Assembly: GCA_965197525.1 (NCBI GenBank)
Contig: OZ240211.1
Span: 1,760,001-1,824,000, forward strand
From: Nitrosopumilus sp.
GTDB taxonomy: Archaea > Thermoproteota > Nitrososphaeria > Nitrososphaerales > Nitrosopumilaceae
Length of the DNA stretch: 64,000 nt
Direction of reading: 5' to 3'
Part shown: in pieces, positions 14,634 to 39,913 of the stretch
Position numbering within the stretch: the first letter of the stretch is position 1
Layout of the letters: every line of letters begins with the position of its first letter
The notes under the pieces: generated by a model
Database searches by the model: none
What the model was told of the DNA's origin: nothing
Seen by the model: only the letters and a program-made list of their open reading frames with translations
Translations under genes and position numbers: made by a program

Positions 14634-16713
14634 CAACAACAACAATAACTTTACTGATTCTGCATTATCTGATAGAGTAAAAGAGTTTCTTACCAGATTC
14701 AAAGACAAAGACGGTAACTACAAGTATGTGGATGCAATCGATAGGATGATGCCAAATAATGCAAAATTCATCATTGTTGATTACAACGATCTAATCATAG
14801 AACCACAAATTGAGACTATATTTTCTGAAGATCCTGATAGAATGTTCAATGCTTTCTCAAGGGCAATCAAAGAAGCGTTGCAGATTCGATTTCCTGACTA
14901 TGCCAAAAAGGTCAAAGACGAGATTCGTGTAAGATTAATCAACTTTCCACTAGAGCGTAGTTTGCGGCAAATAACTGCTGATACTATAGGCCACATCACT
15001 AGTGTTTCAGGAATGGTAGTCAGGGCATCAGAGGTAAAACCACTTGCAAAGGAACTGATCTATGTATGTCCTGATCAACATCCGACCAAAGTTGTTCAGA
15101 TCAAAGGCATGGATGTAAAAATCCCATTAATCTGTGATAATCCTAACTGTAAGCACAGGGATTTTGAATTAAAACCAGAGGCAAGCAAGTTTATCGACTT
15201 TCAAATACTCAGATTGCAAGAACTGCCTGAAGACTTGCCTCCTGGACAACTGCCTCATTATATCGATGTTACAATAAGACAGGACTTGGTTGATAACTCT
15301 AGGCCTGGTGATAGAATCATTCTTACAGGCGTGGTACGAGTAGAGCAAGAGTCAGTCCAAGGAGTTCAACGAGGCCATAGTGGGTTATATCGATTAAGGA
15401 TTGAGGGGAACAATATCGAATTTCTTAGTGGACGTGGCCTGAAGACTGGTAAAAAGATAGGCAGAGAGGAGATCTCACCTGAAGAAGAGAAAGCAATTCG
15501 TACTCTGGCTCAAAGTCCAGAGGTCTATCAAAAACTAGTTGACTCATTTGCTCCTCACATCAGAGGCCAAGAACTTATCAAAGAATCAATCTTGTTACTG
15601 ATTGTTGGCTCAAATCAGAGACTGCTGGGTGACGGCAGCAAGATTCGAGGTGATATCAACATATTTCTAGTAGGAGATCCCGGTACTGCAAAAAGTGAGA
15701 TGCTGAAATTCTGTGCAAGAATTGCTCCTCGAGGTTTGTACACTTCTGGTAGGGGTTCGACTGCAGCCGGACTGACTGCTGCTGTGGTTCGAGACAAAAC
15801 AGGAATTATGATGCTTGAGGCAGGTGCAGTAGTGTTAGGCGATCAAGGTCTAGTAAGTATAGATGAATTTGACAAGATGAAACCAGAAGACAGAAGTGCA
15901 CTCCATGAAGTTATGGAGCAACAGTCAGCTAGTATTGCAAAAGGAGGCATCGTGGCCACTCTGAATGCACGAACATCCATTTTAGCAGCTGCCAATCCGA
16001 TGTATGGAAAATATGATCCGTTTAAAAATATCACAGAGAATGTAAATCTGCCAATTCCACTGCTTACGAGATTTGACTTGATCTTTGTTGTCAGAGATAT
16101 TCCCTCCAGAGAGAAGGATGAGAACATTGCAAGACACATAATAGCACTACACACACCTCAAGGCACCGACAGAAAATCCATAATCGATATAGATATGCTA
16201 ACCAAATATCTTGCATACGCAAAACGTTCTACTCCTTCATTGACCAAAGAAGCTGAAGAGAAGATATTGGATTATTATTTGAAGATGAGAAAGGTTGATG
16301 AAGAATCAATGATTACAGTTACCCCTAGACAGTTAGAGGGAATAATTCGTCTATCCACTGCAAGGGCACGATTACTGATGAAAGACAAAGTCGAAGAAGA
16401 GGATGCAGAGCGCGCAATATTCCTAATTCAAAGCATGCTCAATGATGCTGGTGTTGATGTTAATACTGGAAAAGTTGATCTCGGAGTATTACAAGGAAGA
16501 CCACACAGTGAGGTCACAAAGATACAGCTATTCATGAATATCCTCCAAGGCCTTGAAGGAGATCACAAGGCACCGGTAGATGAGAAAGTACTTGTAAAAG
16601 AACTTGTAAAGAGCGAAAAATTCACAGAGGACCAAGCTCGTGAATACATTAGGCGAATTCATAAAGACGGAACTATTTATGAGTCAAAACCAAACCACTA
16701 TAACAGAACATGA
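14611..16713 (+). CDS. mcm: MCM replicative helicase
   Basis: GDPGTAKSE Walker A, IDEFDKM Walker B, LTRFD Arg finger, C4 zinc motif; no intein. Confidence 0.97.
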   Translation: MSTVQVSDNNNNNFTDSALSDRVKEFLTRFKDKDGNYKYVDAIDRMMPNNAKFIIVDYNDLIIEPQIETIFSEDPDRMFNAFSRAIKEALQIRFPDYAKKVKDEIRVRLINFPLERSLRQITADTIGHITSVSGMVVRASEVKPLAKELIYVCPDQHPTKVVQIKGMDVKIPLICDNPNCKHRDFELKPEASKFIDFQILRLQELPEDLPPGQLPHYIDVTIRQDLVDNSRPGDRIILTGVVRVEQESVQGVQRGHSGLYRLRIEGNNIEFLSGRGLKTGKKIGREEISPEEEKAIRTLAQSPEVYQKLVDSFAPHIRGQELIKESILLLIVGSNQRLLGDGSKIRGDINIFLVGDPGTAKSEMLKFCARIAPRGLYTSGRGSTAAGLTAAVVRDKTGIMMLEAGAVVLGDQGLVSIDEFDKMKPEDRSALHEVMEQQSASIAKGGIVATLNARTSILAAANPMYGKYDPFKNITENVNLPIPLLTRFDLIFVVRDIPSREKDENIARHIIALHTPQGTDRKSIIDIDMLTKYLAYAKRSTPSLTKEAEEKILDYYLKMRKVDEESMITVTPRQLEGIIRLSTARARLLMKDKVEEEDAERAIFLIQSMLNDAGVDVNTGKVDLGVLQGRPHSEVTKIQLFMNILQGLEGDHKAPVDEKVLVKELVKSEKFTEDQAREYIRRIHKDGTIYESKPNHYNRT

Positions 16714-35328: not shown

Positions 35329-36804
35329 ATGTATCGTTCTCGACTTGGTACCGGCCTCAGCGACATAACTTTGGACTATGTATCATCCATTGATGATGAC
35401 TCTGAAATTGCCCTTTATGACATACTTGGGAGCCAAGCTCACTCTTTGATGCTGTACCAAAACAAGATCATTACAAGAAACAATGCAAAAAAAATCCTAG
35501 CTTCATTGGAGAGTCTAAAAGATGTCAAGTTTGGTGTTGCTGCTACTGCTACTGCCACTGATGCAGAAGATATTCATGAATTAATTGAGTCACTAGTTAT
35601 CAAAAAAGCTGGCATGGTAAGTGGAGGTAGGATGCATACTGCACGATCGCGCAACGATCAAATTGCACTTGATATGAGAATGAAGGTTCGAGACGATGTT
35701 AATGCTATTTGCAATTGCTTGCTTGATATGATTGATACACTAGTATGTGCGGCCAAAAATCATACTAAAACCATTATGCCATTGTACACTCATCTTCAAC
35801 AAGCTCAGGCAGGCCTCTTTTCGCATTATCTATTATCCTATGCCGATATGCTGTTTCGTGATTTTGCACGCCTCTCAGAAACATTTCATCGAGTAAACCA
35901 AAGCCCGTTAGGTGCTGGTCCTATAGGCGGTACTAGTATTAAGATAGATAGACACAGTACTGCTGAGATGTTGGGTTTTGATGGATTAGTTGAAAACTCT
36001 ATTGATGCAACTAGCACACGCGATTTTGTAGCAGAGTATGTAGCTGCCATCTCGATTCTGATGACTAACCTCAGTAAGATATCTGAAGACTTTGTGATCT
36101 GGTCCACATCTGAATTCTCTTTCATTGAGCTGTCCGACGAGTTTACCTCTCCATCAAGTGTCATGCCTCAAAAAAAGAATCCTGATATCTTAGAGCTAAC
36201 ACGTGGCAAGACAGCACAGGTCATAGGACACTTGACTGCAGTTTTAACTACAGTCAAAGGATTGGCTTCAGGGTATGGACGTGACTTGCAACAGATAAAA
36301 TCATCTATCTGGTCTACATCTCGTATATCCATTAGCGCACTGTTAATCATGAGATCCGTTATCTTGACTCTAAAGGTAAATAAAAAACAGATGAGAAAAG
36401 TAACTGAATCAAGCAACTTGATTGCCTTGGATATCGCAGAGAGGCTAGTCCAAGAAAATATTCCATTTAGACTAGCCCATAAAATCTCTGGGGCTCTAGT
36501 CCAGTCAGCATCGCAATCTAAAAAATCCATCTCAAAGCTGTCTCTCTCTAAAGTAGCAAAATCTGTCGCAGATTCCAAAGTTGACTCTAAACTTGTCTTT
36601 GACATTATTTCTACGACAACTGTCGTTACATCTCTTGAAGATAGGCGTTCTTATGGCTCATCAGGATATGATGAACAAACACGAATGATTGCAGATAGAA
36701 CTATGCAAATCAAGCAGTGTAGGGAAGATGTTTTGGCCAGGGAATCTAAAATTAATTCCTCGATTGCGGATTTACAAAAACAGATTGACGAGATAATTCA
36801 CTAA
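35329..36804 (+). CDS. argH: Argininosuccinate lyase
   Basis: MHTARSRNDQ, YTHLQQAQ, SSVMPQKKNP signature. Confidence 0.96.
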   Translation: MYRSRLGTGLSDITLDYVSSIDDDSEIALYDILGSQAHSLMLYQNKIITRNNAKKILASLESLKDVKFGVAATATATDAEDIHELIESLVIKKAGMVSGGRMHTARSRNDQIALDMRMKVRDDVNAICNCLLDMIDTLVCAAKNHTKTIMPLYTHLQQAQAGLFSHYLLSYADMLFRDFARLSETFHRVNQSPLGAGPIGGTSIKIDRHSTAEMLGFDGLVENSIDATSTRDFVAEYVAAISILMTNLSKISEDFVIWSTSEFSFIELSDEFTSPSSVMPQKKNPDILELTRGKTAQVIGHLTAVLTTVKGLASGYGRDLQQIKSSIWSTSRISISALLIMRSVILTLKVNKKQMRKVTESSNLIALDIAERLVQENIPFRLAHKISGALVQSASQSKKSISKLSLSKVAKSVADSKVDSKLVFDIISTTTVVTSLEDRRSYGSSGYDEQTRMIADRTMQIKQCREDVLARESKINSSIADLQKQIDEIIH

Positions 36805-36985
36805 ATGGTGATCATCGATGATCTTTTGGTAATCTTGTGCATTAGTTCTTCTCAGTACTAATGTATGTGTTTTATTAAGTGTGTTCTTGATGATTAAGGT
36901 TTAATCTGTTTACCTGTTATGTGGCAGCATCTGTCTTTGATGTATGTGGATGGATCAAGTGTTACTTGACACACAGATAGTTTTT

Positions 36986-37405
36986 TCATTCCCTATCAAT
37001 GGCAGGATATAGACTACGTTTAGCCAGTATTGCAAGATTTGCAGTTATCTCAGAATCATCTTCTGTATATCCAAATATACCTGTATGTGATTTATCGAGA
37101 TACTCTGGCAAAAGTTTTATTCTCAGTTCTATGTCTGCATTGCGTCCAACAGATTTTGTTTCTCCTACGTTAAGAATAGCAAATCTTCCATTCTGTTTTA
37201 TGATAAACCCTTTTGAGTGAAAAATCTCGCGAATTTTCACAATAGCATCTACAAAGTTTGATTCCTTAAAATACTCCAGCCAGTTGGCGGAGAGATAATT
37301 ATCGGATGTACGCGGTTCGAAGGCCATTGGTGACGGATTTCCATCTGACTCTATAGTTCTAGGACTACAATACCGTGACATGTGGTCACTATCTTTCAAT
37401 GCCAT
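36986..37405 (-). CDS. Hypothetical protein, possible ADP-ribosyltransferase fold
   Basis: DHMSRYC...LSANWLEY...SHTGI pattern; third gene of the coupled cassette; fold is inferred. Confidence 0.55.
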   Translation of the reverse strand: MALKDSDHMSRYCSPRTIESDGNPSPMAFEPRTSDNYLSANWLEYFKESNFVDAIVKIREIFHSKGFIIKQNGRFAILNVGETKSVGRNADIELRIKLLPEYLDKSHTGIFGYTEDDSEITANLAILAKRSLYPAIDRE

Positions 37406-37410
37406 ATTAT

Positions 37411-38166
37411 TTATGACTGTAGTTTGTCAATGAATGGTTTGACTGTTCTCAGCATATCATCTGATGACATGAAACCACTGACACTCCATCGTTTAGAGTT
37501 CAAGCTTGGATTATGCATGATGGCAGTAAATCTGATTGAAGTGGATGGCAAGAATTTCATCCCTAGAGTATCTTTTAGTCCCGATTGCAATCTCAGATAA
37601 ATCAATCCTTCATAACTGACGGTAATTTCTGGATTAGGCATCCATGTGTTTTCTATTATATTTTCCATTATGAATCTAGCAGCTATTCTTAATGATTCTA
37701 TATTTATGGGGTTTCCATCCGACTCTTCGTCAGTGATTTCTTTCAGATCTGTCAGGCGCTTTGCAATGGTTGTCAAACCTGCGGATCGAAGTACGGTGAT
37801 TATCTCCTCAACACTATTAGAATTAGATATGGATCTGCGCCAATCTAGCATTAACGATACGTCAAGCATCTCTTTGATTCTTGAATCTGAGATGGACTGT
37901 GAAATAGGTGGAACCAATGACTCTTTTTCTATATTCAACTTGATTTCGATCATCTGAAGTACTAATGTGTCAATAACAGCAGATAAATCAATTAGATTTG
38001 CAGTCGCCTGTTGCGCATTATTATAATGGAATAGGTTTTGGCTCATGTCTGAGAGTGACTGATTTGCTTTTGTGTCCATATGTACCATAAAGTTGTATTT
38101 CAAGGAATGATGATTGTTTATCTTATCTGAATCTGTAGGTCGATCCTCAGTTAAAACAGTCTGCAC
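37411..38166 (-). CDS. Hypothetical protein (disordered N-terminus plus small C-terminal alpha/beta domain)
   Basis: 251-aa ORF; GTG start overlaps the upstream TAG; PEITVSYEGLIYL motif. Confidence 0.65.
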   Translation of the reverse strand: MQTVLTEDRPTDSDKINNHHSLKYNFMVHMDTKANQSLSDMSQNLFHYNNAQQATANLIDLSAVIDTLVLQMIEIKLNIEKESLVPPISQSISDSRIKEMLDVSLMLDWRRSISNSNSVEEIITVLRSAGLTTIAKRLTDLKEITDEESDGNPINIESLRIAARFIMENIIENTWMPNPEITVSYEGLIYLRLQSGLKDTLGMKFLPSTSIRFTAIMHNPSLNSKRWSVSGFMSSDDMLRTVKPFIDKLQS

Positions 38167-38792
38167 TATTCACCACCCTGTATGAGATTATCAATGATGC
38201 GTTTAATATCTTTCTGACGAGATGGCCACTCATTTATCCTTTGAGATAGTAATGCGTGATCTAACTTTCCGTTGTAATGAACATTGCAATTTACAACTAC
38301 TTCATTGTTCTTGCGAGAGCTGAATACCAAGTTAATTACATACTCTTTATTTGTTATGATAAATTTGGGCATCATGTAAAGTTTAGTATCCTGTGAAGAT
38401 GTTTTGAGAAATCGTTTTGTGAGCCATTCTTGTGAATTATTACGAATCATAGACACTACACAGTTTAATCCTAATCTACTGTATGGGATGTGAGGAAGTG
38501 CTTTGACATACTGGGTGGCTATTTTGTATATTTCACTATTGGCATCTTTTTGGAATGATTCGTTCTGATCCTGCGATATATTTAGGCTGTTGGGTTCCAC
38601 AACTAACTGGACATTATTGTCATACTTTAAGACTGACAATCCTGGAGTAGTTATGGTTTGAGTTATTTGCCATTTCTCGGGTATTATTTTGTTGTATTTC
38701 ACAAAGTCGGGGTTGATAATAGATGGATTGTGTTGTTCTGCCAATATGACCACGCTGAGCGAATGAAGTGTGATTGTGTTTTCTTCACTCAT
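38166..38792 (-). CDS. Hypothetical protein, TIGR04255-like
   Basis: SVVILAEQHNPSIINP, LPHIPYSRLGLN, NCNVH motifs recalled from this family. Confidence 0.55.
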   Translation of the reverse strand: MSEENTITLHSLSVVILAEQHNPSIINPDFVKYNKIIPEKWQITQTITTPGLSVLKYDNNVQLVVEPNSLNISQDQNESFQKDANSEIYKIATQYVKALPHIPYSRLGLNCVVSMIRNNSQEWLTKRFLKTSSQDTKLYMMPKFIITNKEYVINLVFSSRKNNEVVVNCNVHYNGKLDHALLSQRINEWPSRQKDIKRIIDNLIQGGE

Positions 38793-39268
38793 AATACATC
38801 CGTATTTTTTTGCATATACACGAATTTAAATCGAAGATCATTATAAAACATGTTTTCAAGATAACTCTATGCAACACTTATTTATTATTTATCGAGACTG
38901 GATTTTCACGCGTTATAACATCAAATTATGGGCTCACGATCAAAACATGGTAAGCACTGGAAAAACAGGCATTATTACGTTCAATCAGACACTGACTAGG
39001 GACCCGTCAAGAATAATTGATTATGCTGCAATTCATAAATTTCGTCATTTGAAAATCAATGATCATTCGACAAGATTTTGACCATTATTAGAAAAATTTA
39101 TGCCAGATTATTTTACACATAAGAAATGGTTAGAAGATCACTCTAGTGAATTATTGATCTAATCTCTGCCAAAAATAGTACTAGTTATGGTCTTCTAGAT
39201 CGTGGATGTTTATCTGATTCTAAATCAAATATTATTATCTTTCATTGCAAACTATCTTGAGATCAATA

Positions 39269-39654
39269 CCTTTCCTCCTAGCAACACGAATAAGCGAGAT
39301 GGTACGAAACGCATTCCGACCTTGATTCTCATGGAGACTATGTGTACTACGAGCATACTTTGACACACAACTACTAGTAGCATAATCCAAAGGAAAGATT
39401 GCATATGATTTCTGCATTTTCTTTATGGGTCACACGGGAAGCATCGAATCAAGGTACGCTACCAACAAAAGGCAGTTATCTTATGCGTTATTTAATGAAA
39501 TGCGTAATGTATTTGATCGCTCAGAAAAATACCTGAATCAGGTAACACAGATCCATTACAAGAGCAACGGATGGAATTCCAACAGATCATAGAGAATGCG
39601 GCATCAGAGGACATTGACGACATGTTAAAGGCGATAAAGATGCTGGCAAATTGA
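39269..39654 (+). pseudogene. Tyrosine recombinase/integrase C-terminal remnant
   Basis: Manual translation PFLLATRISEMVRNAFRP*FSWRLCVLRAYFDTQLLVA*SKGKIAYDFCIFFMGHTGSIESRYATNKR...: LR box, MGH motif and catalytic Tyr; two in-frame stops and a distal frameshift. Confidence 0.8.
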
Positions 39655-39839
39655 GCCAAGTAACCAGATAGTCGTAGACGCCACGCATGCAGAAATTCTG
39701 CTAAGGCTAGAATGCCAATTTGTATGCAGCCTGCCAAACGGCAAGTGCATTTTAACAAAGAAAACCCAATCTGGTAAAATGAACAGATCTTCTGCTCCCC
39801 TGAATCGGGAAGCAGAAGGACCTGGCCCATTAGCGAAAG

Positions 39840-39913
39840 CGGGTCTAAAGGGATTCGGACCCTTGACAACCGGATTAAAAGTCCGGTGCGCTACCTGGCT
39901 GCGCCATAGACCC
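39840..39913 (-). tRNA. tRNA-Lys(TTT)
   Basis: GGGTCTA/TAGACCC acceptor stem; CCGGA-CTTTTAA-TCCGG anticodon arm. Confidence 0.93.

Follow-up and report, generated by a model that had tools for sequence, protein, structure and literature searches.

A mobile three-gene cassette in Nitrosopumilus sp. with a predicted ADP-ribosyltransferase-fold protein and an apparent place among TIGR04255-led toxin-antitoxin-like modules

A 64,000-nucleotide stretch of the genome of Nitrosopumilus sp., a marine ammonia-oxidizing archaeon (contig OZ240211.1, positions 1,760,001 to 1,824,000; hereafter the window), carries a cassette of three genes that is real, intact, and horizontally acquired. We propose that this cassette is, on balance, probably a horizontally mobile module of the toxin-antitoxin (TA) type, composed of an effector with the ADP-ribosyltransferase (ART) fold, an obligate partner, and an optional first gene equivalent to TIGR04255, an NCBIfam family of unknown function labeled "sporadically distributed." Direct support comes from the modeled fold of gene 3, the pairing of gene 2 with gene 3, the interchangeability of gene 1 with TIGR04255 proteins, the link between gene 1 and an N-terminal extension of gene 2, and the mobility of the cassette. 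The three genes, numbered in their 5' to 3' order and taken from the list of open reading frames (ORFs), are as follows.

38166..38792, minus strand: gene 1, 208 aa, ATG start
37411..38166, minus strand: gene 2, 251 aa, GTG start
36986..37405, minus strand: gene 3, 139 aa, ATG start

An initial annotation of the same DNA had described three co-oriented genes joined by a 1-nt TAG/GTG overlap and a 5-nt gap, and both junctions read as it described: genes 1 and 2 overlap by a single base, common to the stop TAG and the start GTG (GAA TAG TG), and five nucleotides separate genes 2 and 3 (TAA-ATAAT-ATG). The motifs that it quoted are likewise present and turn out to be conserved positions of their respective families. 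Since the order and coupling of the genes recur in ~100 independent loci, we consider the arrangement to be beyond chance.

Gene 3 matched nothing in Pfam, NCBIfam, PADLOC, or PHROGs; a profile of its family found chance matches only among PDB sequences, and none of 50 diverse relatives had a Pfam match, in a family of which 2082 clusters at 50% identity are reached at E<=1e-3. Its AlphaFold2 model, built on a 26-sequence alignment, has a predicted local distance difference test (pLDDT) score of 95.5, and a Foldseek search with this model returned Tpt1/KptA as the best PDB match (E 5e-3), with NarE, pertussis S1, and CC0527 ranking lower. An aligner independent of Foldseek gave a list made up almost entirely of ART-fold proteins, in which KptA scored 7.5, Tse2 5.9, AvrPphF/HopF 5.8, DarT 5.3, a RES-type toxin 5.3, and CC0527 5.2, with Tne2, Scabin, CopC, Xre-RES, TreX, MbcT, ParT, and the pertussis and LT toxins also among the matches. 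Judged by its model, gene 3 is predicted to be a single-domain ART-fold protein that possesses the split beta-sheet, NAD+-binding core of that fold. This agrees with the ART-type fold suggested by the initial annotation, whose three quoted motifs contain the conserved residues R11, S39, and H107; its comparison to RES proteins did not hold up, as no RES match was found in Pfam, nor one to DarT or Tpt1. As a separate observation, a single unnamed protein of viral origin in the BFVD collection (A0A9E7QQI2, E 9e-5) shares the fold of gene 3.

Across the 50 diverse members of the gene 3 family, F29, S39, and E44 are invariant, and R11, C13, A28, N41, W42, and H107 are conserved in at least 90%. 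In the model, R11 is part of strand 1 and S39-x-N41 of strand 2, E44 follows closely after strand 2, and strand 5 starts with S106-H107, without a conserved Glu or Gln there. ART clades carry either an H-Y-[EDQ] or an R-S-E triad, with the catalytic Glu heading strand 5 (PMC8120803); when read from the model rather than from a residue-level structural alignment, R11 and S39 of gene 3 fit the first two R-S-E positions, and a His stands at the position of the Glu. ART-fold enzymes that lack this Glu are known, namely AcrIF11 and the "H-H-h" group of Tpt1 and DUF952, which has an HX[S/T] motif (PMC8120803), and the [Y/F/H]-L-S39 motif of gene 3 may correspond to that motif. Gene 3 aligns to the C-lobe of Tpt1 only (residues 88-180), and residue mapping from gene 3 onto Tpt1/DUF952 failed because the hhalign comparison of the gene 3 family with Tpt1 (four sequences) and DUF952 (two sequences) was not significant (E 0.42). 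Separately, Tpt1/KptA (PF01885) was found in none of 41 genomes of the order by a search that detects it in E. coli, Deinococcus, and Methanosarcina. Two loci have gene 3 split into two ORFs with genes 1 and 2 intact, one in a Nitrosopumilus metagenome-assembled genome (MAG; L008:1759-2202) and one in a Dehalococcoidia MAG (L072:5893-6399), and these could be cases of toxin inactivation or assembly errors.

To place gene 3 in its genetic context, we fetched 81 loci through it, one per GTDB species plus that of G017, a second genome of the genus. In 76 of the 81 loci as judged by hidden Markov model (HMM), and in 80 of them by BLAST clustering, the gene next upstream of gene 3 is a relative of gene 2, and the junction between the two genes is a 4-nt overlap in 31 loci and falls within +-20 nt in 75. 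Gene 2 and gene 3 are the core of the cassette and form an obligate pair. The co-occurrence of all three genes, as foreseen in the initial annotation, does recur elsewhere, but only genes 2 and 3 are obligate, with gene 1 found upstream of gene 2 in 32 of the 81 loci (~40%). The two genes are small, adjacent, and often overlapping by 4 nt, and the pair is sporadically distributed, mobile, and found in arrays of paralogs; from its sequences, it appears to be a mobile two-gene module bearing the genetic hallmarks of a type II TA system. Two gene 2-gene 3 fusions (P0118 and P0147) lack the C-terminus of gene 3, may be frameshift artifacts, and were not used as evidence.

Gene 2 itself consists of an N-terminal part that varies and a small C-terminal domain that is conserved, in line with the long N-terminus and small C-terminal domain of the initial annotation. 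An alignment of 40 relatives showed that homology is limited to the last ~140 residues (~110-251 of the window protein); the first ~110 differ among relatives in both length and sequence, and bacterial short forms of ~145 aa have nothing but the C-terminal domain. Gene 2 had no match in Pfam, NCBIfam, PADLOC, or PHROGs, none of the 40 members matched Pfam, a profile search of PDB sequences gave chance matches only, and no structure model of gene 2 was found in the Atlas.

The presence of gene 1 is linked to the N-terminal extension of gene 2, whose length we measured with an HMM restricted to the C-terminal domain. In each of the 43 loci that have gene 1, this domain is preceded by 66 or more residues (median 102); among the 53 loci without gene 1, 32 have 30 residues or fewer, even when the longest possible ORF is taken, and 15 have at least 60. 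Sister loci exhibit joint loss, with 26 aa in L083, which is without gene 1, compared to 99-113 aa in L018 and L025, which possess it, and 13 aa in L010 and L027 compared to 117 aa in L030, L037, and L039; in L010, an insertion sequence (IS) transposase occupies the place expected for gene 1. The distribution of gene 1 on the gene 3 tree takes ~15 changes to explain, of which supported branches force at least 4, and since gene 1-positive and gene 1-negative loci are close sisters on this tree, gene 1 is dispensable. The stop of gene 1 and the start of gene 2 overlap by 4 nt in most loci. The extension has no universal short motif, only lineage-specific ones, and upstream ORFs of long-gene 2 loci without a first gene have no clear relation to gene 1 or TIGR04255, a weak match in L044 excepted. 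By analogy, the link fits a gene 1 that may act on the gene 2 extension in the way that the chaperones of toxin-antitoxin-chaperone (TAC) systems act on the addiction tail of an antitoxin.

Gene 1 has the fold of a TBP-like alpha/beta saddle, matching the saddles of TBP, phosphagen kinases, and AdoMetDC. Searches of Pfam (SecB included), NCBIfam, PADLOC, and PHROGs returned no match for it, Pfam and NCBIfam scans of 31 relatives gave nothing consistent, and a profile search of PDB sequences yielded chance matches only. The SecB-like fold raised earlier for 38166..38792 is rejected on the strength of the saddle; Pfam gave no SecB match, and SecB is likewise missing from the fold-match lists, an absence that would not decide the matter by itself. 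The conserved positions of the family are polar or aromatic (H21-N22-P23-S24, Y95, Y104, N110, N170, and H172), and because its alignment contains no conserved basic residues, a ligand- or peptide-binding site would fit better than DNA binding.

The initial annotation had called gene 1 TIGR04255-like, which stands as a remote and contextual relationship but not as HMM membership, since the TIGR04255 HMM matches 0 of 31 gene 1 relatives at E<=1. We found no description of TIGR04255 in the published literature. The third-nearest Atlas cluster to gene 1 by language-model features is a "putative TIGR04255 family protein" (0.93). A narrower first hhalign comparison gave an E of 0.12, and broader gene 1 profiles against nine bona fide TIGR04255 proteins gave a weak, merely suggestive similarity, with an E of 2-4e-3 over 177-190 colinear columns at a probability of 9-12%, pairing the motif PHVxYxxxGLN with the motif RxGxRYIN. 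All nine of these TIGR04255 genes lead a tight three-gene layout like that of the cassette. Four such operons have a middle gene that is a homolog of gene 2 (hhalign probability 91%, E 9e-7, 117 columns), and small third genes align to gene 3 (E 1.8e-4, 111 columns) with matching LSV and DPxH motifs. Another third gene belongs to a HEPN-like family that is also seen downstream of divergent gene 1 relatives (E 8e-11), and at L100:1312-3694 a TIGR04255 gene is followed by an apparent helix-turn-helix protein and then by a Zeta-toxin kinase (PF06414, E 1e-7). From the other side, an HMM made from the nine TIGR04255 proteins matches the ORF directly upstream of the gene 2-gene 3 pair in L078 (5e-21), L062 (9e-21), and the viral locus L096 (2e-16). 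Gene 1 and TIGR04255 can stand in for each other as regards position and partners, and remote homology between them is probable.

A metagenome scan with the gene 1 profile recovered 14 loci with all three genes and ~30 more divergent loci in which the three-ORF layout is kept and the middle and third genes are unrelated. The scan supports the link between gene 1 and TIGR04255 from the opposite direction. The largest divergent set combines a ~190-aa middle protein with no known relatives (A8) and a helical ~136-aa third protein (A7) with the motifs SRAYYAxFN and LRxxRNxADY, whose best PDB sequence match, weak at an E of 0.35, is to a HEPN domain protein. This A7/A8 cassette is led by divergent gene 1 relatives in L143-L155 (e.g., L143:2882-4520) and by a true TIGR04255 gene at L104:533-2220. 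The gene 1 family, then, heads tight operons with at least two unrelated downstream pairs, ART-like and HEPN-like.

The cassette lies in an insertion between argH and a tRNA gene, whose features in the window are listed below.

35329-36804, flank of the insertion: argH, with Pfam Lyase_1 and ASL_C2
~36806-39835, between argH and the 3' end of tRNA-Lys: insertion of 3.0 kb with the cassette and decayed remnants
38793..38860, minus strand: candidate archaeal promoter region upstream of gene 1, read from the sequence
38869-39081, plus strand: YgjP-like metallopeptidase fragment, 70 aa (PF01863, E 4.4e-6)
39272-39535, plus strand: integrase-like gene remnant found by tblastn, with ~88/469 residues recognizable
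39839-39913, minus strand: tRNA-Lys(TTT), the insertion target, by ARAGORN and synteny

DNA comparison with 40 other genomes of the genus revealed that the segment 1507-4535 (query numbering) has no counterpart at their argH/tRNA-Lys site. Since relatives such as G012 have argH only ~20 bp from tRNA-Lys, ~36806-39835 is a 3.0-kb insertion present in this genome only (of 41), and the claim of an open cassette carried in a decayed insertion at tRNA-Lys is borne out. The carrier element has decayed, yet 1.8 kb of cassette remains open. As for the decayed integrase of the initial annotation, the remnant at 39272-39535 resembles residues 266-353 of a 469-aa protein of the relative G026 (44% identity, E 7e-20, by tblastn), which has a tyrosine-recombinase-like C-terminal motif (R...FMGHKGDIEARY), but there is no Pfam support, and 38869-39081 is YgjP-like, not an integrase. 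The G026 protein has no match in Pfam or among PDB sequences, and it is by its C-terminal motif, our sole basis, that the remnant looks like an integrase. The YgjP-like fragment covers just positions 146-186 of the 207-position PF01863 profile, and because the decayed insert holds this fragment, the element formerly bore more cargo. No att-like repeat of the tRNA-Lys 3' end was detected at the insert. The ATG of gene 1 is preceded at ~38 nt by an A/T-rich TTTAAAT box and, farther upstream, by TTTATAA, which together may constitute an archaeal promoter; a sigma-70 scan of this region is not applicable to archaea.

The hosts of the gene 2-gene 3 pair are mostly bacterial and include Dehalococcoidia/Chloroflexota, Latescibacterota, Acidobacteriota, Rhodothermales/Bacteroidota, Pseudomonadales, Binatia, Nitrospinaceae, and Desulfobacterales, with further occurrences in two Nitrosopumilaceae MAG contigs and one viral contig. 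The initial annotation had proposed an archaeal module, which this mainly bacterial distribution, sporadic in archaea, does not support. The gene 3 tree does not follow taxonomy, and among the genomes of the genus that were searched, only this one and G017 yielded the cassette (2 of 37-41 genomes). In G017, the argH-tRNA-Lys site is empty, and the copy (L007:12830-14032) sits in a different, variable island, which contains a gene of the Fic/DOC family and whose end is close to tRNA-Val (15329-15428). Dehalococcoidia have gene 2-gene 3 pairs in tandem arrays of two to four, with four diverged pairs directly downstream of an AIPR abortive-infection gene (PF10592) in one MAG (L049:2878-6405), three pairs in L048, and two each in L026, L031, and L060. 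On the viral contig (L096:4473-6453, from IMG/VR), a TIGR04255-type gene, a gene 2-like gene, and a gene 3-like gene follow one another tightly. As an aside, record titles of gene 3-family hosts (L008-L087) name many lineages typical of sponge microbiomes, such as Dehalococcoidia, Latescibacterota, Binatia, Rhodothermales, Azotimanducaceae, and Nitrosopumilus, with isolate names such as Langseth, RHO1, and Plut, and a host set of this kind, so judged, would fit exchange inside one community.

If the cassette is a TA-type module, gene 3 would be a minimal NAD+-binding ART-fold enzyme from the neighborhood of Tpt1, DUF952, and DarT and the presumed toxin, which might ADP-ribosylate nucleic acid or another essential target or consume NAD+. 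Gene 2, encoded just upstream and translationally coupled, would neutralize gene 3 through its conserved C-terminal domain as a putative antitoxin or adaptor. Gene 1 would be an optional accessory that may stabilize the N-terminal extension of gene 2 or sense a trigger, a role like that of a TAC chaperone in logic, not in ancestry. We infer the toxicity of gene 3, its neutralization, its substrate, and any role in defense. A more ambitious version of this proposal, which we hold as a tentative possibility and somewhat doubt, is that gene 1 and TIGR04255 are the common stabilizer or trigger sensor of a very large class of mix-and-match tripartite TA or defense cassettes in bacteria, archaea, and viruses, which would act via the gene 2 extension and have interchangeable effectors, including a new catalytic ART variant (R11-S39-E44-H107, lacking the strand-5 Glu) that modifies nucleic acids.

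Several observations weigh against a TA-type module with a role for gene 1 at the gene 2 extension. Gene 2 resembles nothing known, and gene 3 is without a canonical catalytic triad, has S106-H107 where ARTs have the catalytic Glu, and retains E44 as its sole invariant acid. One deletion of adjacent DNA could cause the co-loss of gene 1 and the extension, 15 loci keep a long gene 2 without a recognized first gene, and many of the short gene 2 forms are related to one another. The defense context seen amounts to one viral contig and a few defense-like neighbors, and PADLOC models, PDC-M32A and PDC-M32B included, had no match at E<=1 for the three window proteins, so that no relationship to PDC-M32 is indicated.

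Could the cassette instead serve a non-toxic, NAD+-dependent function in nucleic-acid processing or repair, with gene 3 as a Tpt1-like 2'-phosphotransferase or capping lobe, gene 2 as a substrate-binding subunit replacing the Tpt1 N-lobe, and gene 1 as a regulator? We consider this unlikely, as the distribution is sporadic, on insertions and islands, with tandem paralogous arrays, and as similar first and middle genes pair with HEPN-like and Zeta toxins too. Moreover, the catalytic R-H-R-R tetrad of Tpt1 lies largely in its N-lobe (PMC8120803) and is missing in gene 3, and gene 2 is without similarity to winged-helix lobes. We regard as quite unlikely that gene 3 is a catalytically dead ART-fold binding module acting by another mechanism, or that the cassette is a selfish addiction module without host benefit. 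The non-canonical motifs of gene 3, which contain no Glu/Gln-x-Glu, and the failure to assign it to a family speak for a dead module, but R11, S39, N41, E44, and H107 are conserved in a family of >2000 clusters, and since these polar residues are conserved throughout the family, they look like an active site. The existence of active Glu-less ART-fold enzymes such as Tpt1, DUF952, and AcrIF11 (PMC8120803) also counts against it.

Diverged pairs in the tandem arrays of Dehalococcoidia could also be read as immunity and toxin cassettes, which would make genes 3 and 2 an orphan toxin-immunity pair of a polymorphic toxin system for cell competition. The structural neighbors of gene 3 include the type VI secretion system (T6SS)/Rhs toxins Tse2, Tne2, TreX, and TreTu, and many hosts seemingly come from dense symbiont communities, as far as record titles tell. 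We nevertheless find this improbable, as the relatives of gene 3 are nearly always stand-alone proteins of ~140 aa that carry neither an N-terminal trafficking domain nor one of the Rhs/PAAR type, the immunity-like gene comes first with an overlap of 4 nt, which is the arrangement of type II TA modules, and the pair is found in archaea and a viral contig and is linked to TIGR04255-type first genes. Least probable of all, and in our view barely credible, is that the cassette is a true CmdTAC-like TAC system in which gene 1 is the chaperone. Three coupled genes, an ART-fold last gene, and a non-conserved, probably disordered gene 2 extension that is always there with gene 1 would suit such a system, but gene 1 has a saddle fold and no SecB match in Pfam. 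CmdTAC, as described (PMC11618068), has its genes in the order T-A-C and needs ClpP for activation; its toxin CmdT is exotoxin A-like and bears an H-Y-[EDQ] triad, its antitoxin CmdA is helical at the N-terminus and has a disordered tail at the C-terminus whose last residues are LAA, and its third protein, CmdC, is a SecB homolog. The cassette shares none of these defining features.

The three protein families of the cassette are not covered by Pfam, NCBIfam (by HMM), PADLOC, and PDB. Under the TA-type interpretation, TIGR04255 and the divergent sister family that its HMM misses gain a concrete candidate role, that of an optional gene at the head of modular toxin cassettes, together with the specific hypothesis that this gene acts by way of the extension at the N-terminus of the middle protein. 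Should gene 3 prove active, the catalytic chemistry of ARTs would be extended by its non-canonical residues. To our knowledge, few toxin-antitoxin or defense systems have been characterized in ammonia-oxidizing archaea, and the transfer of such a module into these organisms is documented here.

ART-fold toxins with cognate neutralizers are an established kind of system, exemplified by DarTG, RES-Xre, ParST, and CmdTAC. Unlike DarTG, RES-Xre/MbcTA, and ParST, the cassette often has a third gene. Gene 3 has no match to DarT/DUF4433, RES (PF08808), or ParT in Pfam, and gene 2 is neither a macrodomain protein (DarG) nor an Xre/DUF2384 protein, which led us to reject DarTG and RES-Xre as identities. 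Membership of gene 3 in Tpt1/KptA was likewise rejected on the grounds that it has no PF01885 match, is a single 139-aa domain, and possesses neither a winged-helix N-lobe nor the R-H-R-R tetrad. Gene 3 differs from Tpt1/KptA and DUF952 (CC0527) in having no sequence or profile similarity to them and in its own conserved set of R11, S39, N41, W42, E44, and H107.

The resemblance to CmdTAC, of which the initial annotation had suggested an analog, lies in a tripartite composition, an ART-fold effector, a middle protein with a disordered extension, and a third component that co-occurs with this extension, so the logic may be similar. Part by part, the analogy did not survive. Gene 1 has a TBP-like saddle, whereas CmdC has the SecB fold, and the gene order is accessory-antitoxin-toxin instead of T-A-C. 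Gene 2 carries its extension at the N-terminus and its folded domain at the C-terminus, unlike CmdA, whose ChAD tail is C-terminal; gene 3 is not an H-Y-[EDQ] DTX-type ART and has no conserved His-Tyr-Glu pattern; and the accessory gene of the cassette is dispensable in ~60% of loci. The cassette is not CmdTAC, and what the two have in common is logic, not membership. A closer likeness is to the TIGR04255-led cassettes, which also comprise a first gene of 210-280 aa, a middle gene, and a small effector in tight coupling; gene 1 is shorter (~208 aa, compared to ~250-280 aa for TIGR04255), and neither it nor any of 30 relatives passes the TIGR04255 HMM, even at a cutoff of E<=1. Altogether, as far as its sequences indicate, the cassette is a divergent, cross-domain member of a large family of three-part TA-like modules led by TIGR04255-type proteins.

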